Shown here: positions 7,900 through 45,034 of the stretch, piece by piece
Numbering within the stretch: the stretch's first letter is position 1
How the letters are laid out: every line of letters starts with the position of its first letter
Assembly (NCBI RefSeq): GCF_058153355.1
Contig: NZ_CM177019.1
DNA: 64,000 nt
Strand: one strand, 5' to 3'
The notes under the pieces: model-generated
Told to the model about the DNA's origin: nothing
Databases searched by the model: none
Seen by the model: the letters and a program-made list of their open reading frames with translations, nothing else
Position numbers and translations under genes: made by a program

Positions 7900-15888
<7,989 letters not shown>

Positions 15889-16196
15889 GCTTACCTTCCC
15901 TGAACGAGCTAACATAAATGCGCCCTTTCTAGCACAGCGAAAAAATATAAATCCTGATAGCAATATGATTGAAAATTAATAACTTTTCGTTAAGCAGTTT
16001 TGGGTGTGAGTTGCAAGAGGGGAGACTACTGAATAACTCAAGTTTTATAATCGAGGGGAAAATGGTGATGGTGTCCATAGCAAAACGCCCTCAACCATAA
16101 AGATCGAGGGCGCTTAAGATGTCAAAAACCCGCTATCCGTTAAAAAGCAATGCTCAACTAAGGTCAGTGACATTGCGCTAAAAAGCGAATTTTTAG

Positions 16197-29889: not shown

Positions 29890-30119
29890 TTGAGCCCTTT
29901 ACCGGTGCAGACCTTTGCAAACACCGGGTCGCAGAACATCGCGACGGAGGCCAGAGTTTTAACACGATACGTCCTTTTACTGCGCCAGCCTGCTGGTCTG
30001 AATCTGCCCCGCGCCGGAATTTTCCCGGTCAGCTTATATTTGCTGACACCCTCAGCACCTTTTACCTCACGGGCTGCGGCATGCATTTGCCGCAAGGCAT
30101 TTGCTGACGCGTGCCCGTA

Positions 30120-30250
30120 AAACTGCACCAGACGGTAAATTTTCAGACGCTGCACCAGACCCGTGCGTCACTTTAACCGCGCAGAGCGGGAAAGTGACGC
30201 ACGCAATCCCTTTCGACCTGCACCAGAAAACTCAACTGCGCCAGCTCACG
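30120..30250 (-). repeat. array of CTGCACCAG/CTGCGCCAG motifs upstream of the recombinase gene
   Basis: At least four copies near 30123, 30149, 30220 and 30238, in opposite orientation to the array at 31618-31881. Confidence 0.45.
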
Positions 30251-30535
30251 GCTGGAGTCTGACACCGCCTTTTCAGGCCATTTACCTATAAGGAGAACAT
30301 GAATCGATACCGAGGCGGATCCGGACGATCCGGGGGATAACCCGCGCAAGCGGGCGGCTGCTCAGAGAGCACAACCGAAGCCCCACCACACCTCAACGGC
30401 TGCCGCCCCGGCGCTCAGGTATCGTTCGCAGCCCCGACAAAAAAACAGGGGCTATCGGCCTGTGCGCCGGGGAAAGCTGTATCAGTGTTGGTTTTTTGGG
30501 GGATGAGTTTGCGGCAATCATGAAAAGGGGAATGT

Positions 30536-31423
30536 ATGGGGATACTGGAGCAGGAAATGACGCGACTGGCGCAGCAGGCGGGTGGCAGCTACAAAACTGT
30601 GGATGACCGCATCAGGCTGGCGCAGCGGTTTTGTGAGCGTCTGGTTCTGGCGCAGAACGTACAAATCCGCCGGGTGGAGCAGCTTAAGGCGCGGCATATT
30701 GAAGGCTATGTTCGTGAACGGCTGGCGCAGGGCATCACAAAGCGTTCCCTGCAAAATGAGATGGCGGCGGTGCGCTGCATTCTGAAACAGGCCGGGCGTG
30801 ACAGGCTGGCGCAGAGTGAGCGGCTGAATAACCGCTCGCTGGGATTGTCCGGAGCATCCCGTAACGGGACGAAGCTGGCTATTACACTGGAGCACTATCG
30901 TGATGTGCTGGAGACCGCCCGCGTAAAAGATCCGGGGCTGGCGGCAGCGCTGGAGCTCTCAAGGTTGATGGGATTACGTTCGCAGGAGGCGGTGCAGAGT
31001 GTACAGTCGCTGAAAACGTGGATACAGGCGCTGGAGCGTGGTGAGTCCCGGTTAACCGTGGTGTTCGGCACCAAAGGCGGACGGCCCCGCGAGACGATTA
31101 TTCTTGATGCTGGCGTAGTTAAAAAAGCGCTGGATAATGCGCTGGTGGTGGCTGAGGATCGTCACGGCAGGCTGATAGATAAGCCCGATCTGAGAAGCGC
31201 GATGAAATACTGGCACAGCCAGGCGTCGGGTCTTGGTTTAACTGGCGCATATTCCCCGCACTCGTTGCGCTATGCCTGGGCGCAGGATGCTATTCGTCAT
31301 TATCTGGCGCAGGGATTTTGTGAGAAGGAAGCGCTGGCGATGACGGCGATGGATTTGGGTCACGGCGACGGGCGCGGGCGGTATGTGGCGCAGGTTTACG
31401 GGCGAAAGGGGGATGCTGATTGA
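30536..31423 (+). CDS. small tyrosine recombinase/integrase-family protein
   Basis: 295 aa; C-terminal HSLRYAWAQ box and candidate nucleophile in GRGRYVAQVYG; LAQ-rich N-terminal domain. Confidence 0.5.
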   Translation: MGILEQEMTRLAQQAGGSYKTVDDRIRLAQRFCERLVLAQNVQIRRVEQLKARHIEGYVRERLAQGITKRSLQNEMAAVRCILKQAGRDRLAQSERLNNRSLGLSGASRNGTKLAITLEHYRDVLETARVKDPGLAAALELSRLMGLRSQEAVQSVQSLKTWIQALERGESRLTVVFGTKGGRPRETIILDAGVVKKALDNALVVAEDRHGRLIDKPDLRSAMKYWHSQASGLGLTGAYSPHSLRYAWAQDAIRHYLAQGFCEKEALAMTAMDLGHGDGRGRYVAQVYGRKGDAD

Positions 31424-31446
31424 TAGCTTCAGACTTGCAATATGAT

Positions 31447-32005
31447 GTTATTCATCGTTTTCCGTACAAAATTATTTGCCTCAAATAATTTTGGGTGATT
31501 TCCTATTAATCCCGGGTTATTCATCGTTATTCACCGAAAAAATTTCTACGTAGAAATTTTTTGTTCGATTTCCTCTCAATAAAAATGCTTCTGAACGGTA
31601 TGGCCTATTAACAGGCCTCTGGTGCAGTATTACGGTATTTTACTGATGATTGCGCCAGCAAAAGGAAAAGGCCAAATAATGGTAAAGGGCGACTAAGGGT
31701 AACAGCGCCAGACCGGAAAGGGCCAAAAGGCTAAAAGGCCTTAACACTGGCGCAGTTTGATGTTTATCCAATAATATCTGGCGCAGTCCTGACATAGACA
31801 GGTGACAGCGGACTGGTGCAGTAAATGGTGACATTGAACTGGTGCGGATACGATGTATTGGGAAATCAGTTTCTGGTGCAGATTATCTGGCAGCTATCGT
31901 CTGGAGATTATTCACTGTGAATAATTTTCGTTATTTGCCTATTGATTCATAATATATTGATAGGTTTTCGTACAAAATTATTCTACGTCGAATAATTTTG
32001 TACGC
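31447..32005. promoter_or_regulatory. cluster of perfect palindromes (candidate operators or recombination sites)
   Basis: CAAAATTATTTG-CCT-CAAATAATTTTG (~31466-31492); 24-bp AAAAATTTCTACGTAGAAATTTTT (~31539-31565); ATTATTCAC-T-GTGAATAAT (~31907-31925); GTACAAAATTATTC...GAATAATTTTGTAC (~31969-32002). Confidence 0.5.
31618..31881 (+). repeat. array of CTGGYGCAG direct repeats at ~26-35 bp spacing
   Basis: Copies near 31618, 31747, 31778, 31813, 31839 and 31873. Confidence 0.5.
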
Positions 32006-32055
32006 TTTCCGATTAATAACCCAAAAGTTGAAGATAAATCCTTTCAATGTAAAAA

Positions 32056-32088
32056 GCAGATCCGGATTCAATCGGGATCTGCTTTTTC
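32056..32088. terminator. bidirectional hairpin terminator between recombinase region and integrase 3' end
   Basis: AAAAAGCAGATCCGGATTCAATCGGGATCTGCTTTTT: 10-bp stem flanked by A-run and T-run. Confidence 0.55.
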
Positions 32089-32116
32089 ATTCTTAACAAA
32101 TCATATTGCTACTGGC

Positions 32117-33379
32117 TCAGGCCGCCTTATGCCGTCGCGCATAAATATACGGCGCAACGTATCCCTCGCGGCTCACGTCCAGATAATCCGACCACCACTG
32201 CATCATGGCTGTACGGGCGTCAAGATGTTCAGCCCGGTGGATATACGCCGCCCGAACGCTGTTGCGCTCCTGATGACTTATCTGCCGCTCCACCGCATCC
32301 CGTGACCAGAGCTCAGATTCCACTAATGCGCTACAGGCCATTGCCCGGAAGCCATGCCCGCAAACGTCAGTTTTAGTATCGTAACCTATCAGACGCAGCG
32401 CCCGGTTGATGGTGTTTTCACTCATCGGTTTATACGGGTTATGGTCGCCGGGGAACACCAGTTCCAGATGGCCGGAAATTTCGTGTATCTGCTTCAGAAT
32501 GGCAATAGCCTGTCGGGAAAGTGGCACAATATGTGGGGTGCGCATTTTCGCGCCGCGACCAGAGAAACGGACTTTCTCAATCGCTTCCCTTGTGGCGGGG
32601 ATGATCCAGATTTTGTTTCTGAAATCTATCTCACCCCAGCGGGCAAAGCGCAGCTCGCTGGAACGGATAAACAGGTGGAGAGTCAACACCACCGCCAGCC
32701 TCGTAAGCTGTCGTCCCTGCCGATAGTCGCCAATGCGCTCAAACAATTCGGGCAACCGCTCCAGCGGCAGAGCGGGATAGTGATTCTTAACCGGCGGCGC
32801 GGTGACGCCTTCCAGATGCTGCGCCGGGTTGTTTTCGGTCAGTCCCTGCTGAACGGCGTAACGCATGATGTTGCAGAGTTGCTGCCGGGTACGGGACGCG
32901 ACTTCCAGAAAACCTTTATCCTCAATAACCCGCAGTAACGCAGTGAAATGCTGCGTTTTCAGCGTGGTAACGGGCAGATGGCCAATAGCCGGAAATATAT
33001 GGTTATTCATGCTGGCGAGAATGCGCTCTGCATAATCAGGCGACCACTTTTTGTTGGTTTTGTGCCATGCAAGCGCTACAGCTTTAAAACACTTTTCCGG
33101 TGAAGTGGCGGCTTTTTCATCCATGCGTTGTTGGGCGGGGTTGATATTCTGCGCCAGTAGCTTGCGGATAGCATCGCGCTGTTGCCGGGCTTCAGCGAGA
33201 GAAATCAGCGGATATGCGCCCAGACTGACGCGGGACTCTTTACCACCGAAGCGATACTTGAGATACCAGATACGTGAACCGCCGGGATTGACCAGCAAAT
33301 ACAGACCGTGTGAATCAGACAGTTTGACGGGTTTGGAAGAGGGTTTTAAGTTACGGATTTTTGAATCGTTTAAAGACAT
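32117..33379 (-). CDS. int: P4-type tyrosine integrase
   Basis: ORF 32117-33481; start placed at MSLNDSKIRNLKPSSKPVKLSDSHGLYLLVNPGGSRIWYLKY, a P4-integrase-like N-terminus; adjacent to tRNA-Asn. Confidence 0.8.
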   Translation of the reverse strand: MSLNDSKIRNLKPSSKPVKLSDSHGLYLLVNPGGSRIWYLKYRFGGKESRVSLGAYPLISLAEARQQRDAIRKLLAQNINPAQQRMDEKAATSPEKCFKAVALAWHKTNKKWSPDYAERILASMNNHIFPAIGHLPVTTLKTQHFTALLRVIEDKGFLEVASRTRQQLCNIMRYAVQQGLTENNPAQHLEGVTAPPVKNHYPALPLERLPELFERIGDYRQGRQLTRLAVVLTLHLFIRSSELRFARWGEIDFRNKIWIIPATREAIEKVRFSGRGAKMRTPHIVPLSRQAIAILKQIHEISGHLELVFPGDHNPYKPMSENTINRALRLIGYDTKTDVCGHGFRAMACSALVESELWSRDAVERQISHQERNSVRAAYIHRAEHLDARTAMMQWWSDYLDVSREGYVAPYIYARRHKAA

Positions 33380-33540
33380 TTGGGGGTCACTCCAGAATCG
33401 AACCAACCTGACCCCAAATCTGACCACCAAATTAACCGGATGCGGAGGGAAAACTGAATACGCATCTGGAAAGATTTTCACGCTAACTTATTGAATCAAT
33501 ATCAAATAAAGACTAATAAGGTAGCGTAAGAATCGAAATT

Positions 33541-33616
33541 TGGCTCCTCTGACTGGACTCGAACCAGTGACATACGGATTAACAGTCCGCCGTTCTACCG
33601 ACTGAACTACAGAGGA
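33541..33616 (-). tRNA. asnT: tRNA-Asn (GUU), island integration target
   Basis: Exact reverse complement of the 76-nt tRNA-Asn at 1688-1763; symbol by synteny with yeeJ and mtfA. Confidence 0.9.
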
Positions 33617-33623
33617 ATCGTGT

Positions 33624-33652
33624 GAACGAGGCGCATATTACTTAGCGGTACC
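33624..33652 (-). promoter_or_regulatory. sigma70-like promoter for asnT (TTGACA-17 bp-TAATAT)
   Basis: Minus strand reads TTGACAGACAAGGTACCGCTAAGTAATATGCGCCTC just upstream of the tRNA. Confidence 0.5.
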
Positions 33653-33716
33653 TTGTCTGTCAACACCAAATTTCATAAGTTATTTCAACTGGTTAATTAA
33701 TCTGCAAACTTGTTAA

Positions 33717-34514
33717 TTAATGAACATTCGTCGCCGAAAACGAGTCTGTATCATTAGCGTGATGCAGTCTCTGCAAAGGATCTTGTTGATAAAATTGGCA
33801 GAAACGTTGCCACAATGAAGGGAAACGAGGAGCAAAAAGTTCTGGGGCGCTAAAGAAATATTCAGAAAGTACAGCAAAACACTCAGCAGGATCACTGGCA
33901 GCATAAGCATCAATGCTCGCCGCATTCTCGCCAACCAATTCGATTTCTTCCTGAATATTGTTCATTGCAGCATGAAGATCGTGTTCCCAGCCAGCAACCT
34001 CACGCAACGGAATAAAGGGAACTCCGCTGGCGCGATCGCCGTTACGGGTGTCCAGCTTATGAGCGACTTCATGAATAATCAGGTTAAAACCAGAAGCATC
34101 AAAAGAATCTTGTATATCCAACCAGTTCAAAACGATAGGCCCTTGCTGCCAGCTCTGACCTGACTGAACAATACGTTGGTTATGCACCAGACCGATATCG
34201 TCTTCCCATTCGTCATCGACCACAAATGGCGCAGGATAAATTAAGACTTCATGAAAACCATCCAGCCATTCCAGTCCTAACTCCAGAACGGGCAGGCAAA
34301 ATAGAAGTGCTATCCGGCAGCTTCTTAATGAATCCAGCTCAAAGCCCTGTAAGGGAACAAGCCGTTTTTGCTGTAAAAAACGTTCAGCAAGAGTGACTAG
34401 TTTCCTTTGTTCCTGTTCTGTCAGGCACGTTAAAAGGGGAATCGATAGTGCTTCCTGCCAGGGAAGGGCAGTTTGATGTGCTGATTCTTGTACTTTCCAG
34501 GGCCACTTAATCAT
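33717..34514 (-). CDS. mtfA: Mlc titration factor A (zinc-dependent peptidase fold)
   Basis: ORF 33717-34553; start placed at [28 protein letters not shown] motif IIHEVAHKL. Confidence 0.85.
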
Positions 34515-34607
34515 CGTTTTGCTCGCAAACTCGTCACTTGAACAAAATTGCACGGACAGGGACTGTTAAAATGCCAAATTTCCTGGCATCATGGCAACCA
34601 TCTGAAC

Positions 34608-34697
34608 GGAGAGATGCCGGAGCGGCTGAACGGACCGGTCTCGAAAACCGGAGTGGGGGCAACTCCACCGGGGGTTCAAATCCCCCTCTCTCCGCCA
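34608..34697 (+). tRNA. serU: tRNA-Ser (CGA)
   Basis: 90-nt GGAGAGATGCCGGAGCGGCTGAACGGACCGGTCTCGAAAACCGG...TCTCCGCCA with long variable arm and CGA anticodon. Confidence 0.85.
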
Positions 34698-34749
34698 AAA
34701 TTCAATCAATTACACATCATTAAGTCAGTGACAAAAATCACACTTGGAA

Positions 34750-35775
34750 TTACTTGGAATATTTTCTTGGAATATTTTCAGGTAACGGGACATCAAGTGT
34801 CGGTGAAACTTTAACCTTCCTGTCATAGATTAGCACTTGCCCCTCGGTTTTGTGACCAGAGAAAAGTTGCTTATCCCGACTGCTTCCTTCATAGTCTGAA
34901 ATTCCTTTCGCCTTCAGATCATGAAAGGTGAAGTCGGTTAAAATACCTGAAATTTTGCCTGCGCGATTTCTTGCTTCTACCCACATTTCGTTAAAGCCTT
35001 TGTACATATATCGGTTGCCGTATTGATTGCTGATTACATAGGCGGATGTTGGTAACTGTTTTGCTTTTTCGATCGCCGCCTGTAATCGTGGACTCCATGC
35101 TTTTATCTGTTTTTTCCCTGTTTTCCCTTGCTGGATAAAGATCCCGTCGTTTCCAATCTGCTCCCATTTCAGCGATAACACATCGGAAACCCTCGCTGCA
35201 CACAGATAGGCAATTTCCATTGCGATAAAAACAGGAAGAGGTGCAACGCTTAATACTGCCTGGTATTCTTTGTCGGTTACATATCGTTCCCGGTTTTTGG
35301 CCTTGAATTTACTTACACCTGCACATGGGTTAGCCTTCACGTACCCTCGCTCATACCCCCAACTGTAAACGCGGGACATACTGCTTTTTTCATGGTTGGC
35401 TTGCGTTTTACTCTGTTCCCCTCTCTTGTCCATGTATCGACGGATGTGTTCTGGTTTTATGGAATCTGCCGGCACCTTACCGAATACGGCAAGCAACTTT
35501 TTTTGATGTTGCAGATAATCTTTTTGTGTTCTTGGACTGAGGTCACTGTAATAGGCGCTGGCGAGGAATTTTTCCCACAAGCGACCGAATGTCATTGCAC
35601 GATCGCGATTATTTACAGTTTCCTCATACTTTTTCCATAAAGCAGCTAAACCATCCTTGATGGCGGTTAGTGTTACAGATTCTCTGGATGTTGGTTTCCA
35701 TACATAACTATATTTATTTGGGTATACATTTGGAGGTAATTTTTCGTGTTCAGGATTTTTCCTTCGTCTTCCCAT
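34750..35775 (-). CDS. int: phage tyrosine integrase
   Basis: 341-aa ORF abutting the tRNA-Ser 3' end with an excisionase immediately upstream. Confidence 0.75.
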   Translation of the reverse strand: MGRRRKNPEHEKLPPNVYPNKYSYVWKPTSRESVTLTAIKDGLAALWKKYEETVNNRDRAMTFGRLWEKFLASAYYSDLSPRTQKDYLQHQKKLLAVFGKVPADSIKPEHIRRYMDKRGEQSKTQANHEKSSMSRVYSWGYERGYVKANPCAGVSKFKAKNRERYVTDKEYQAVLSVAPLPVFIAMEIAYLCAARVSDVLSLKWEQIGNDGIFIQQGKTGKKQIKAWSPRLQAAIEKAKQLPTSAYVISNQYGNRYMYKGFNEMWVEARNRAGKISGILTDFTFHDLKAKGISDYEGSSRDKQLFSGHKTEGQVLIYDRKVKVSPTLDVPLPENIPRKYSK

Positions 35776-35978
35776 CAGATCGCACCAAAATTCGGCTCTA
35801 CCTTGCGTGGTGGTAAAGTTTTATTGCAGGTAAATAGATCCCGGCTGACAATCGGTTTGCCACTACGATTGGTATAGAACGGAAGCCCGTTTTCCATTAA
35901 CCATTTTCGCTGGTGGCTTGCATATTTGCAGCCCGTTAATATTAGCAATTCATCTTCGGTTAAAAATAAGCTGCTCAT
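35775..35978 (-). CDS. xis: excisionase (Xis)
   Basis: 67-aa ORF overlapping the integrase start. Confidence 0.6.
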   Translation of the reverse strand: MSSLFLTEDELLILTGCKYASHQRKWLMENGLPFYTNRSGKPIVSRDLFTCNKTLPPRKVEPNFGAI

Positions 35979-36036
35979 AGCTATATCTCATAACCGCCGC
36001 TAACTATATGCGGTTAGCGGCGAGCAGGGTTGAACA

Positions 36037-38987: not shown

Positions 38988-39545
38988 TCAACAATGAATT
39001 TTGAGTAATTGCTCTACAGTCATATTTTTAATTGCGCCCCGGTTAACAAGAGTCCATCCCTGTTCTTCCAGATAAAACCGGAAAGTCTCCATGGTACAGA
39101 CCCGTGCGCCATCAGGGACGGTTTCGGTGAATCTGATGTTGCCGCGTTCGTCGAAGTGAACAACCAGGGTGCGGCCATCGCCTGGAATTATTTTGTCAGT
39201 GGGTGGGGTGTTATTCTGGCGCAGCTCGGCCTCCATGCGGTCGAACTCAGCAATGTAGGTTTCTTTGAATGCAGCGGCTTTTTTGCCTGTGAAGCCCATC
39301 ACCAGGAAAACGAAGCCGTTTTTGGTGATTTGGTACATTGGGCGTTTTTCGCCTTTGGCGTCGGTATAGGTGACGGGCTTAAAATTAAGCCGGTTAAACT
39401 CCGGCGAGCATTCGAGAGTTTCGATCTTCTGAATAACGTTTTTGTGCATTTTCCGGAAGAACTCCGCAACCGCAACAGACGTAGTGACAGCGCGACCATT
39501 TTCGATGGTTACGTCAGGGTGAGAAAGGGTAAGGATAGTAGCCAT
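38988..39545 (-). CDS. Rha-family phage regulatory protein
   Basis: Start placed at MATILTLSHPDVTIENGRAVTTSVAVAEFF within ORF 38988-39839. Confidence 0.55.
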   Translation of the reverse strand: MATILTLSHPDVTIENGRAVTTSVAVAEFFRKMHKNVIQKIETLECSPEFNRLNFKPVTYTDAKGEKRPMYQITKNGFVFLVMGFTGKKAAAFKETYIAEFDRMEAELRQNNTPPTDKIIPGDGRTLVVHFDERGNIRFTETVPDGARVCTMETFRFYLEEQGWTLVNRGAIKNMTVEQLLKIHC

Positions 39546-40392
39546 GATGGCAGCCTCGATAGTCAGTTTAAATAACTCACCACCAGAGGTAGCAATCTCA
39601 TGGGTGGTGAGACGCACAGGGTTGCTACAACCGGTGACTACCGAAACCGGCCAGCCTTGCGGCTGCCCTGCACGCCCCACCATAATCTGAATGTGGCTGT
39701 GCTTGACGCATAAAAAAACCGCCTGAGCGCGGTTATGCGCAGTAGTCATCGTCGGGGTAGCAATCCCGGCACCCGTTTTATGAGGTGCAGGTGCACTATA
39801 ATTCCACCCGTTCTGGTTTTCAATAGCTACATTCAACATTTTCTCTTTCCTTTCATCACCGAAGTGAACTTTGTTGATGCGGTGCCTGGTGCCTCCAGGT
39901 GACGTTAACCAGTTAACAATTAACGCCGGAATAAGGGATTTTCCTTACTGTTTTAACTGTTCCGCGTGCGCTGAGCCGCATTCACCGCATCACAAAATTC
40001 ACTTTAAAAAGGGCGGACATCAGCCAGCAATTAAACCGATGCCGCCAAAGGTAATCAACATGGGTTGTTGCAGCGGGGTTGTCGCTCAGGCGTATGGTCA
40101 ACCTGACAACCCGGTGGACATTTGCGAGGAACGGAGAACCCCCGCCATACTTACCGCCGCGCCATTTCGCGGATTGCCACAACCGGAAGCGCACGGTCGA
40201 AGAAAATTTAACGACAGGCTATCTATGAACCAGCAACCTCGCCGTGCGCTTTCGCGTTATGCTCTGACTTTTCAGGGAAATATCCTTTCAGTAAACTGTC
40301 AGTGCCGGATACTCACCCGTGTCCGGCGCACCTACTCCACCTTACCCGTGGAGAACTCCTTAATTACCAACCTTAGCTTCGTTGGTTAGCTA

Positions 40393-40925: not shown

Positions 40926-41129
40926 GCTGACCTCATTTCCCCTTAACGCCGGGTGGCGGAACAAAAAACCTGCTGCATAGTTAAAGATTGAACCCTGCCG
41001 TCATGTTCTTACGCCTCGGGCTGGCTACTTAACCCCTGACCACTGCCTGGTAACTCGAAGTATTGCCCTGCGTTCTGTGGGGCGGGGTGGGTTGACGCCT
41101 GGAACAATAGCATCATTATTTTTTGATGT

Positions 41130-41150
41130 AAATAGCATCGCTATTGTTTT
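41130..41150. promoter_or_regulatory. operator-like palindrome AATAGCATCGCTATT (candidate OL)
   Basis: Same palindrome recurs in the cI-cro intergenic region. Confidence 0.4.
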
Positions 41151-41201
41151 TTGTTGGGGCAAGAAAAAACCACCCTAAGGTGGTTCTGTCGGCGGGAATA
41201 A

Positions 41202-41492
41202 TTAACTGTTTTTGCCTGGATACTGTCTTCGAGAATGCACAATATTTACTACTTCTATGCTTGATGCTGTTACTCGGTAAAGGATGATGTAGTTAGGATG
41301 AGTTACAATTTCACGAAGACCAAGAACTCGCTCGCTTGGAGGATACAGGTAAGGATGCTCTGTGAGCGGCAAAACGGATGTTTCAATTCGAATTTTCATT
41401 CTGCGTGCTGCCGCGGGATTTTCTTTAGCTATGTAGGCTACGATCTGGCGCAAATCATCACGAGCAGATGGTAGCCATAAAACGGGTAACAT
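41202..41492 (-). CDS. RelE/ParE-family toxin
   Basis: 96-aa ORF with RelE/ParE-like composition, overlapping the upstream 64-aa antitoxin ORF. Confidence 0.6.
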   Translation of the reverse strand: MLPVLWLPSARDDLRQIVAYIAKENPAAARRMKIRIETSVLPLTEHPYLYPPSERVLGLREIVTHPNYIILYRVTASSIEVVNIVHSRRQYPGKNS

Positions 41493-41686
41493 TATTCACC
41501 TCTGTGAGTCGCAGCAGCAATTTGGGCAATAATTTGTTCCATTTCCGCCATTACCTCATCATGCGGAATCGCCGGGCGGGGATCCGCGAGGCTTGCTGCT
41601 ACTTTGGCCCGCAGCCATTCGTTGTAACTATTTTCTTGCTCAACTGTCTCAAATTCTGAAACCATTGGGGAAAGGACTGTACTCAT
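41492..41686 (-). CDS. antitoxin partner of the RelE/ParE-family toxin
   Basis: 64-aa ORF immediately upstream of and overlapping the toxin ORF. Confidence 0.5.
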   Translation of the reverse strand: MSTVLSPMVSEFETVEQENSYNEWLRAKVAASLADPRPAIPHDEVMAEMEQIIAQIAAATHRGE

Positions 41687-41705
41687 TTTACATATCTCCT
41701 CTGAT

Positions 41706-42206
41706 TTAGGCGCGACGGCCTTTTTGTGCAGCTAACCACCGCGCAACCGTACGATCCATTGATTCTTTTTTATCTTTCATCTCCTGAAGCATGTGCTCTT
41801 GATCTTCTTTCGGAAAAGCTCTGAACGTATGGATTAAATCTCGTTCCATCGGCTCTACGGCAAACGGTAGTTCATCCTCTGTTTGTTCTGTGTCTGCTGG
41901 TAATGCGACTATGTTATCTTGCTGTGGTTCTCGACAATACATCCTTGCAATTTGCAGCAAATCTGCCATGTCTGGCCTGATTGACTCAGGGGGAACTTTC
42001 AGTAAGCCAGCAAACTTTAGAACAGCCTCAAGGTTTAGTGGGGTTTGACCATTTAGGTAGTGACTTACCGCCCCTTGTGTTGAAAACCCCATAATTTCCG
42101 CCGCACGTTCCTGAGTCAATCCCAACTGAGATTTCTTTGCCATCCAGATTTCTTTCAGTCTTCTGGCGGCGTTTAGGTCGGTGTCTGACAGTGATTTTCT
42201 TTTCAT
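41706..42206 (-). CDS. CI-like HTH prophage repressor
   Basis: Start placed at MKRKSLSDTDLNAARRLKEIW in ORF 41706-42236; divergent from a Cro-like gene across a palindrome-rich intergenic region. Confidence 0.6.
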   Translation of the reverse strand: MKRKSLSDTDLNAARRLKEIWMAKKSQLGLTQERAAEIMGFSTQGAVSHYLNGQTPLNLEAVLKFAGLLKVPPESIRPDMADLLQIARMYCREPQQDNIVALPADTEQTEDELPFAVEPMERDLIHTFRAFPKEDQEHMLQEMKDKKESMDRTVARWLAAQKGRRA

Positions 42207-42244
42207 ACATCCAATTCTAATAAGATTGCTAATCACTTTGAAAT

Positions 42245-42290
42245 AGCATCGCTATTTACTTTTAAAAATAACAGTGCTATTAATTATGCG
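42245..42290. promoter_or_regulatory. cI-cro intergenic operators (AATAGCATCGCTATT and ATAACAGTGCTATTA)
   Basis: Two related palindromes between divergent repressor genes. Confidence 0.45.
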
Positions 42291-42317
42291 TTGGTAACAC
42301 ATCACATAGGGCGGATT

Positions 42318-42581
42318 ATGAATCTTGGAGAATATTTGCATCATTTTCATATAACCCAGAGTTCATTTGCTGAGATTGTTGGCGCATCCCAGGGGATGGT
42401 CAGCCACGTTATAACGGGGCGTGCAAAACTTACAGGAGAAAAAATATTACGTTGGTGTGAAGCAACGGGATGGGTGGTGACCCCACATGAGATTGACAGT
42501 AAAACCTACCCCAACCCAACTGACGGCTTGCCTGCTGAGTTTCAGGCTAACACACAACCATCGGCGGGGGTTGATTCATGA
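42318..42581 (+). CDS. Cro/YdaS-like HTH regulator
   Basis: Start placed at MNLGEYLHHFHITQSSFAEIVGASQGMVSH within ORF 42291-42581. Confidence 0.55.
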   Translation: MNLGEYLHHFHITQSSFAEIVGASQGMVSHVITGRAKLTGEKILRWCEATGWVVTPHEIDSKTYPNPTDGLPAEFQANTQPSAGVDS

Positions 42582-43003: not shown

Positions 43004-43074
43004 CTGACAATAGCCATATCGAATTGCTTCCGGCAACTCGTGAGTAAAAAGATTCGGTATCAGAAGAGGTGAGT

Positions 43075-44127
43075 ATGGCTAACGCCTGGCTCAGATTATG
43101 GCATGACATGCCAAATGACCCTAAGTGGCGAACAATTGCCAGGGTGTCAGGGCAGACAATTGCAACAGTGATGGCTGTGTATATCCACCTTCTGGTGAGC
43201 GCGTCACGAAATGTCACGACATGTCACGGCGTGTCACTACGTGGTCACATTGATGTCACGACGGAAGATTTAGCAAGTGCGCTTGATGTGACGGAAGAAG
43301 TAATTGATTCAATTTTACAGGCAATGCAGGGGCGGGTACTTGATGGAGATTTAATCTCTGGATGGGAAAAACGCCAGGTACTGAAAGAGGACAATGGCAA
43401 CGTTTCACAAACCGCGAAATCCCCGGCAGAGCGCAAGAGAGCGCAGCGCGAGAGGGAAAAATTACGAAAACAGAATGAGGGGGGGCATGACGAGTCACGC
43501 ATATGTCACGACATGTCACGACGAGTCACGACAGATAAAGATACAGATAAAGATACAGATAAAGAATTAAACCCCACACATAACGCGCGCGTGCGCGAGA
43601 GTGCTCCGACCAGTGAGTCGAATGGCGTGCTGTTGCAGGCAGCGGAACCTGATTACCTGGAAGGCCTGAGCGAACCCATCGGGAAATTTCCGATGACTGA
43701 TGGCTGGCATCCGTCGCCGGATTTTCGACGGCGGGCAGCTCTGTGGGGAGTAGCTCTGCCGGAGCCGGAATTTACACCAGCTGAACTTGCCGCCTTCCGG
43801 GACTACTGGGCAGCGGAGGGTAAAGTTTTCACGCAGGTTCAGTGGGAGCAGAAATTCGCCCGTCACGTAAATCACGTCAGGGCGCAGGTTAAACCAGTCA
43901 GCAAGGGGGTGAGCCATGCAGCAGCACCAGGCGGCACCGCATCACGGGCAGTTCAGGAAATTCGGGCAGCACGTGAGCAGTGGGAACGTGAAAACGGATT
44001 TATCAGCGACGGAAACGGCGTGGAAGCTGTGGGAACTCATGGGGGAGGTTTATTCGAACCGCTGGACCCGGAAGAACGGGGCCGCACCTTCGAAGCTCTG
44101 GATTGCACAGATTGGCGTGATGACTGA
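43075..44127 (+). CDS. phage replication initiation protein (O-like) with internal iterons
   Basis: Start at ATG preceded by GAGGTG; coding sequence contains GTCACG repeat clusters and GATAAAGATACA tandem repeats. Confidence 0.5.
43190..43570 (+). repeat. candidate phage origin iterons (GTCACG clusters; tandem GATAAAGATACA)
   Basis: Two clusters of GTCACG-type repeats plus three tandem 12-mers inside the O-like gene. Confidence 0.5.
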
Positions 44128-44581: not shown

Positions 44582-44611
44582 ATTGTGAAGGTGATTTTTT
44601 CAGGAGGATTT

Positions 44612-45034
44612 ATGGCGAAACCTTTTACTCCCGAACAGCGGGAAGAACTGAAGACGCGAATTGTGGAACTCGTGCATCAGGACGGTCGGGTCACGATTCG
44701 GCAGTTGTCAGATGAAACAGGTATCAGTCGTGCGTCTGTCGGTCGCTTATGCATGGAACTGGTCGCAAGTGGTGATGTATATAATTCTGGCTACGGCTTA
44801 TTCCCGTCTGAACAGGCTCGCAAGGACTGGCAAAGCGCCCGCAAAAAACTCTCGAGAGTAAAGGTGAGGAAACCGGTTGTTGTTGATCCGGACCTTATCT
44901 GGTCATTACCAGACGGAGAAATACGTCGTTACAACAGACGACAGAACATAATCTGTCGCGAGTGCCGGAATAGTGAAGTTATGCAGCGTGTACTGGCTTT
45001 CTATCAGGGGAATTTTCAGGAGGCGGCGCAGTGA
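44612..45034 (+). CDS. hypothetical phage protein
   Basis: Start placed at MAKPFTPEQ preceded by AGGAGG. Confidence 0.4.
   Translation: MAKPFTPEQREELKTRIVELVHQDGRVTIRQLSDETGISRASVGRLCMELVASGDVYNSGYGLFPSEQARKDWQSARKKLSRVKVRKPVVVDPDLIWSLPDGEIRRYNRRQNIICRECRNSEVMQRVLAFYQGNFQEAAQ

Follow-up and report, generated by a model that had tools for sequence, protein, structure and literature searches.

A paaR-paaA-parE locus with an exchanged DNA-binding specificity module in a lambdoid prophage's immunity region

The stretch of DNA analyzed here, referred to as the window, comprises 64,000 nt of contig NZ_CM177019.1 (RefSeq assembly GCF_058153355.1) and includes a lambdoid prophage with a toxin-antitoxin (TA) pair in its immunity region. 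On the (−) strand between positions 41100 and 42300, the list of open reading frames (ORFs) and the sequence itself revealed three co-oriented, closely packed genes, which encode a prophage repressor, a PaaA-family antitoxin, and a ParE-family toxin (Table 1). The locus represents the published paaR-paaA-parE three-component system of lambdoid prophage immunity regions, which has already been characterized (Hallez 2010; Jurenas 2021). The original prediction had described a RelE/ParE-type TA pair, co-oriented with a cI-like repressor and located between this repressor and a candidate left operator, i.e., in the position that lambda uses for rexA-rexB. Our analysis agrees with this description: all three ORFs lie on the (−) strand, Pfam and PDB matches specify the pair further as a member of the PaaA-ParE subfamily, the putative left operator and promoter mirror the right operator, and the locus published for cryptic prophage CP-933P shows the same layout. 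The interval proposed for the pair (41130-42236) does contain it, but it also takes in a left operator site and the repressor; moreover, the pair had been presented as a fresh lead, which the earlier publications do not allow.

For comparison, we used the related loci L001, L002 (strain F6321), and L003. The longest ORF of the repressor gene (41706-42236) begins at a GTG at 42236, but the ATG at 42206, which gives a protein of 166 amino acids and serves as the start in RefSeq for the identical protein of L001, is likely the true start. Only 19 nt, with a GGAG Shine-Dalgarno sequence inside, separate the repressor stop from the antitoxin start, so that there is no space for a terminator between the two genes, and the antitoxin stop and the toxin ATG overlap by one base (TAATG). 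The sole terminator-like hairpin of the operon follows the toxin gene, starting twelve bases past its stop codon (−15.1 kcal/mol; z = −3.2), and a fold as good as this occurred in 0 of 200 shuffled sequences. A simple terminator scan did not flag this hairpin, which folding of the stretch revealed clearly. Even with a permissive threshold, scanning the locus against Rfam returned only two sub-threshold chance matches, and thus no known RNA element within the operon. Judging by this layout, the pair is almost certainly co-transcribed with the repressor. The genes appear intact, with full-length reading frames, Shine-Dalgarno sequence, start/stop overlap, and terminator in place. The ratio of nonsynonymous to synonymous substitution rates (dN/dS; window versus relatives, dS > 1) came to 0.05-0.06 (toxin), 0.07-0.14 (antitoxin), and 0.09 (repressor), which places all three genes under strong purifying selection.

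Analysis of the two TA proteins revealed close relatives in Escherichia coli O157:H7. The antitoxin matches PaaA2 of this strain (PDB 3zbe; E = 1.4e-23), has PaaA2 (PF21217) as its sole Pfam domain (E = 4.8e-23), and scores 94 bits with NCBIfam model NF050103 (cutoff, 50). The toxin matches ParE2 of O157:H7 (PDB 5cw7_B; E = 6.7e-37; 67% identity), with further PDB matches being weaker and likewise ParE proteins, and belongs to the Pfam family ParE_toxin (PF05016; E = 2e-17; 64 bits). Its identity to ParE2 of the isolated phage Evi (LR597642) is also 67%, and its identity to two E. coli alleles amounts to 83% and 88%. The homologues are labeled generically in RefSeq, where the toxin is a "RelE/ParE family toxin," the antitoxin a "RelB family antitoxin," and the repressor a "helix-turn-helix domain-containing protein." The parts of the published system are found in the expected order: a ParE1/ParE2-like toxin, a short PaaA-type antitoxin directly upstream, and, further upstream, the gene of a helix-turn-helix (HTH) regulator, which probably belongs to the same operon.

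The repressor combines segments of different relationship. Over residues 2-82, the protein gives a match to lambda repressor's N-terminal domain (PDB 1lmb; E = 1.3e-9), and the similarity to lambda cI ends at about residue 90. In the C-terminal part, identity amounts to 52% with PaaR2 (44 amino acids) and to 56% with the PaaR1-type protein of L002 (64 amino acids); the PaaR2 reference sequence was taken from phage Evi and begins with MQKKE, as in the published N-terminal sequencing. In addition, residues 106-162 match positions 74-130 of the 135 positions of the DicA model (E = 7.6e-8), although the whole protein scores only 32 bits with this model (cutoff, 101). A Pfam search of the repressor returned HTH domains only (HTH_3) and no S24 peptidase, the self-cleaving domain to which cI/LexA-type repressors owe their RecA-dependent induction. 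As these matches indicate, the repressor is a chimera of a lambda-cI-type DNA-binding domain and a PaaR/DicA-type C-terminal domain, i.e., a domain-swapped relative of PaaR. We also considered the C-terminal domain as a TA-specific dock linking the repressor to the toxin complex. This role was rejected for lack of support: the domain also matches DicA, and no TA pair is known downstream of dicA in E. coli K-12.

Next to the repressor gene and beyond the toxin gene lie copies of one exact 15-bp palindrome, AATAGCATCGCTATT, and a degenerate version accompanies each copy at a distance of 25 bp. If 3 or fewer mismatches are allowed, the window contains 10 matches to this palindrome, compared to 1.8 expected, and none of 100 shuffled sequences reached 10. 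As a sequence feature, the candidate left operator of the original prediction is real. The four sites form matched left and right operators, presumably bound by the repressor. A possible third site of the right operator has a resembling sequence at the equivalent position in L003, which is a weak call. The PL-like promoter overlaps both left operator sites and would be directed left, toward ydfA-like early genes. At the other end, the −10 element of the PRM-like promoter ends 7 nt ahead of the repressor ATG, from which a leaderless repressor mRNA is predicted as the probable form. Comparison with the relatives supports the operators as well: L003, whose repressor is 78% identical, keeps AATAGC half-sites at both ends, and the heteroimmune L002 has different palindromes, AAAAACTGTT/AACAGTTTTT, likewise at both ends. 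Each immunity type thus has its own palindromes at both ends, swapped jointly, which argues for the assignment.

A sliding identity profile of the locus against its relatives showed where the exchange took place. Two segments are replaced jointly in heteroimmune relatives: 41100-41200, which holds the left operator, and 41850-42450, which spans the N-terminal half of the repressor, the right operator, and the Cro-like gene. Homology persists across relatives in the flanks, in the TA pair, in the C-terminal part of the repressor, and in ydaT. The locus is therefore a heteroimmune member of the family with a different DNA-binding specificity module, and only this module, a repressor with cI-type N-terminal and PaaR/DicA-type C-terminal domains together with its own operators, is new here. 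[quoted passage not shown]

The remaining genes of the switch are a divergent Cro-like gene and, behind it, a CII-like gene. YdaS and YdaT have been identified as the Cro and CII analogues of CP-933P, and YdaT has been demonstrated to be a regulator, a CII-like transcriptional activator, and no toxin (PMC8630535); the RefSeq name of the YdaT homologue, "toxin YdaT family protein," is therefore misleading. The inverted repeat TTGATTCATGAAAACCAA at the ydaS/ydaT junction differs by one mismatch from the published YdaT box (TTGATT-N6-AATCAA). The number of such boxes across the window is not above chance (7 versus 4.65), and the site was retained only because it is the single match per locus and always lies at the ydaS/ydaT junction in all five loci of this comparison. 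The region is organized like a lambdoid immunity region: the repressor and Cro-like genes diverge, putative operators lie in between, and corresponding operators sit at the distant PL-like promoter on the left.

Table 1. Coordinates of the immunity-region features in the window
Feature	Position	Strand	Evidence or remark
Putative left operator, degenerate copy AATAGCATCATTATT (2 mismatches)	41106-41120		25 bp from exact copy, spacing as at right operator
Putative left operator, exact copy AATAGCATCGCTATT	41131-41145		Same as site at 42242-42256; exchanged along with right operator in heteroimmune relatives
PL-like promoter (−35 TTTACA, 17-nt spacer, −10 TATTGT preceded by TG)	41104-41132	−	Consensus scan; function putative
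Hairpin followed by U-run, likely intrinsic terminator of repressor-antitoxin-toxin transcript	41163-41190	−	RNA fold, inverted repeat
ParE-family toxin, 96 amino acids	41202-41492	−	Pfam PF05016, PDB 5cw7_B, allele identities, dN/dS
PaaA-family antitoxin without DNA-binding domain, 64 amino acids	41492-41686	−	Pfam PF21217, PDB 3zbe, NCBIfam NF050103
Prophage repressor, 166 amino acids, lambda-cI-type N-terminal HTH and PaaR/DicA-type C-terminal domain, without S24 peptidase	41706-42206	−	PDB 1lmb, HTH_3, DicA
PRM-like promoter (−35 TTCAAA, 17-nt spacer, −10 TAGAAT)	42214-42242	−	Consensus scan and sequence
Possible third site of the right operator, weak, AATAAGATTGCTAAT (4 mismatches)	42219-42233		By eye; between −10 and −35 of PRM-like promoter
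Putative right operator, exact copy AATAGCATCGCTATT	42242-42256		Repeat search
Putative right operator, degenerate copy AATAACAGTGCTATT	42267-42281		25 bp from exact copy
YdaS-like Cro-analogue HTH protein, 87 amino acids, divergent from repressor	42318-42581	+	phrog_35 transcriptional repressor, E = 8e-17; RefSeq HTH protein at equivalent position of L001
YdaT-box-like inverted repeat TTGATTCATGAAAACCAA	42571-42588		ydaS/ydaT junction, the PRE-analogue position
YdaT-like CII-analogue activator, 141 amino acids	42578-43003	+	phrog_163 CII-like transcriptional activator, E = 7e-44

The paaR2-paaA2-parE2 operon was described in the immunity region of CP-933P (also Sp12) of E. coli O157:H7 (Hallez 2010; Jurenas 2021, PMC8630535). 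Previous work on this operon revealed that it is regulated by PaaR2, a cI analogue that is translated from a leaderless mRNA, forms octamers, and has no peptidase domain, and that PL933P and the left operator (OL) lie beyond parE2, as lambda PL lies beyond cI-rexA-rexB (PMC8630535). Both ClpAP and ClpXP degrade PaaA2, which contains no DNA-binding domain, and ParE2 co-localizes with the nucleoid and induces the SOS response; the locus stabilizes an unstable plasmid by post-segregational killing, and the authors proposed that the TA pair guards the immunity region against loss or replacement (PMC8630535). Phage Evi has the genes for PaaR2, PaaA2, and ParE2 arranged in this order, and its ydaS and ydaT are divergent as well. 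L002, which comes from O157:H7 strain F6321, is by our inference paaR1-paaA1-parE1 of CP-933M: the PaaA2 sequence of the PDB is not that of its antitoxin, and the published study places a homologue on CP-933M.

Judging by the genes present and their homologies, by the operator repeats, by the mosaic boundaries, and by the purifying selection, all of which were directly seen here, we consider it very likely that the locus is a PaaR-PaaA-ParE three-component TA module, carried in a lambdoid prophage by the PRM-type operon of lysogeny, and that it acts in addiction. Toxicity, antitoxin lability, promoter use, and DNA binding are taken over from the homologues of O157:H7. In a lysogen, the cI-like repressor would occupy 15-bp AATAGCAnnGCTATT palindromes in the right operator, between its own gene and ydaS, and in the left operator past the toxin gene, and this binding would repress the rightward and leftward early promoters. 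The repressor transcript, probably leaderless, would read through the antitoxin and toxin genes and end at the hairpin before the left operator. Since the PaaA antitoxin has no DNA-binding domain, transcription of the operon would be controlled by the prophage repressor. PaaA would wrap the ParE toxin and thereby neutralize it. Should the immunity region or the whole prophage be lost or replaced, the labile antitoxin would decay, and free ParE, nucleoid-associated and SOS-inducing, would arrest or kill the cell, so that the host would depend on keeping the element.

Several points weigh against this interpretation. The N-terminal DNA-binding domain of the repressor is lambda-cI-like and not homologous to that of PaaR1 or PaaR2, and, because it is unrelated to that of PaaR2, its binding to the four palindromic sites is read from the DNA sequence only. 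A simple consensus scan found no PR promoter; a candidate noted by eye (TTTACT-17-TATTAA at 42255-42283) was not accepted as a part. The last ~18 residues of the antitoxin, its C-terminal tail, are unlike PaaA2, and the toxin shares just 67% identity with ParE2 and 83% with the L002 allele, presumably ParE1. With regard to the published homologues, a reporter system detected ParE2 activity in neither transcriptional state (PMC8630535), and according to a review, ParE2 neither binds GyrA59 nor inhibits gyrase.

The position of the pair raises the question of whether it serves mainly as a Rex-like module of abortive infection or superinfection exclusion, in which an invading phage would deplete PaaA, by turning off transcription of the host or in another way, and ParE would kill the lysogen before the phage replicates. 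Abortive infection is one of the functions that type II TA systems can have. The pair occupies the rexA-rexB slot and would be expressed in lysogens, being co-transcribed with the repressor, and the antitoxin of the homologue is labile. We nevertheless regard exclusion as an unlikely main function. PADLOC returned no match for the repressor, antitoxin, or toxin, and only weak HTH-type matches, for the Cro-like protein, among the five proteins of the immunity region; the resemblance to rexAB is one of position only. Furthermore, our literature search found no report of phage defense by PaaA-ParE, the published phenotype of the homologue is addiction, and the same prophage has a Ren-like exclusion gene elsewhere, with which a further exclusion function is not clearly needed. 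That the pair, besides acting in addiction, causes abortive infection when a superinfecting phage stops the supply of antitoxin seems to us similarly doubtful. If true, the lambdoid "rex slot" would be a general docking site for defense cargo, and a TA family as widespread as this one (841 of the 5426 complete E. coli genomes) would acquire a defense phenotype.

The toxin might alternatively be a ribosome-dependent mRNA endonuclease of the RelE type and not a DNA-damaging toxin of the ParE type. It scores just above the cutoff of the NCBIfam RelE_StbE model TIGR02385 (29.3 versus 27.9 bits), and its RefSeq name includes RelE, but the ParE_toxin match is far stronger at 64 bits, the next PDB matches are ParE proteins, and its closest characterized relative, ParE2 (67% identity), is nucleoid-localized and SOS-inducing. 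We thus favor, from these sequence matches, placement in the ParE branch of the superfamily and hold a RelE-type activity to be very improbable. Equally little speaks for the pair being a decaying passenger without present function: the published reporter saw no toxin activity in either state and many such prophages are cryptic, but the full-length frames with dN/dS of 0.05-0.14 at dS > 1, the intact Shine-Dalgarno sequence, start/stop overlap, and terminator, and the integrase, replication, terminase, and head genes kept by the prophage make this highly improbable.

The exchange of the specificity module around a TA cassette that stays in place fits the published idea that the TA pair punishes loss of the immunity region, but it is also evidence that the region does recombine, and that it does so inside the repressor gene. 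The practical value of our analysis lies in the correct annotation of genes that bear generic RefSeq labels and of YdaT, which is called a toxin.

DNA relatives of the TA pair are present in 841 of the 5426 complete E. coli genomes, with coverage of 80% or more of the pair in 605 of the 841. The repressor type is found at full length in 71 genomes. E. coli FDAARGOS_944 carries a near-identical copy of the whole locus (99.3%), likewise at tRNA-Ser/mtfA and again with generic RefSeq names. In a collection of phage genomes, DNA of the locus matched isolated phages only across ~100 bp of the left flank, and a protein search of isolated phages with the toxin found the cassette in Evi alone, plus one distant fragment. 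Because matches in isolated phages are so few, the system is mostly seen in prophages. The prophage in the window is integrated at tRNA-Ser, adjoining mtfA, with the integrase gene (34750-35775, −) directly after the tRNA gene, and it has replication, terminase, and head genes. The chromosomal flank (30000-36000, with mtfA, tRNA-Asn, and tRNA-Ser; also 34608-35775) is ~91-93% identical to any complete E. coli genome, in contrast to the 99.3% identity of the immunity region to FDAARGOS_944. Because of this low flank identity, the host is probably a non-coli Escherichia. Farther away, the window contains an intact ORF of 2687 amino acids (7900-15963, −), and FDAARGOS_944 has a gene for an Ig-like domain protein, annotated as frameshifted, on the same side of tRNA-Asn/mtfA.

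Other observations concern the early operons of the prophage. The leftward operon includes a long ORF (38988-39839, −) with matches to Rha/Ant-type anti-repressors (phrog_995, phrog_373, and phrog_63). Matches to C4 antisense RNA (RF01695; 75.7 bits) and to the Hfq-binding RNA isrK (RF01394; 61.5 bits) lie within the 5′ part of this ORF, where the two RNAs cover positions 39600-39687 (−) and 39712-39788 (−). Translation of the Ant-like gene probably begins downstream of both. Such a module, similar to P1 immI and Gifsy, could be the route of induction for a repressor without a self-cleaving domain. On the rightward side, the gene of the O-like replication initiator (43069-44127) contains repeats of TGTCACGAC spaced by 10 bp, with four copies at 43212-43262 and three at 43504-43532 (+), which are probably origin iterons. 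Directly after the O-like and P-like replication genes, in the lambda ren slot, a Ren-like exclusion protein is encoded at 44585-45034 (+; phrog_142; E = 1.7e-44).

The locus was also compared with known systems. With classical ParD-ParE pairs (RK2; ParDE2 of Vibrio cholerae), it shares the Pfam family of the toxin. ParD, however, binds DNA and autoregulates its operon, whereas in the PaaA systems the antitoxin is without a DNA-binding domain and regulation falls to a separate protein; gyrase inhibition is not reported for the PaaA-ParE subfamily. DicA of the Qin prophage in E. coli K-12 has the C-terminal domain of the repressor in common and occupies the equivalent of the cI position upstream of ydfA-type genes. 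The resemblance to lambda cI-rexA-rexB comprises the accessory genes between repressor and OL/PL, PRM-type co-transcription, the homologous N-terminal domain of the repressor, and the leaderless repressor mRNA, predicted in our case. In contrast, PaaA and ParE have no homology to RexA and RexB, and the repressor lacks the self-cleaving S24 domain of lambda cI. The Rex mechanism, membrane depolarization on infection, is unrelated to the action of ParE.

The closest correspondence is with the PaaR-PaaA-ParE loci themselves. CP-933P and Evi show the same gene order of regulator, antitoxin, and toxin with divergent ydaS and ydaT, an antitoxin with the PaaA2 domain, a toxin of 67% identity, and a repressor without peptidase domain whose C-terminal 44 residues are 52% identical; the site in the immunity region, the YdaT box at the ydaS/ydaT junction, and OL/PL beyond the toxin gene are further shared with CP-933P. 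They differ in the unrelated N-terminal domain of the repressor, in its length (166 amino acids here versus 123 in PaaR2), in the last ~18 residues of the antitoxin, and in the Cro-like YdaS, which is not alignable at the DNA level, and the AATAGCAnnGCTATT operators found here stand against 18-bp palindromes built on GTTTAGTAA in CP-933P. L002 provides the closest TA alleles of a characterized type (antitoxin, 78%; toxin, 83% identity), together with 56% identity over the C-terminal 64 residues of the repressor and flanks on the ydfA and ydaT sides that are 88-98% identical in DNA, while the N-terminal domain of the repressor, both operators (with AAAAACTGTT/AACAGTTTTT palindromes), and ydaS are replaced.

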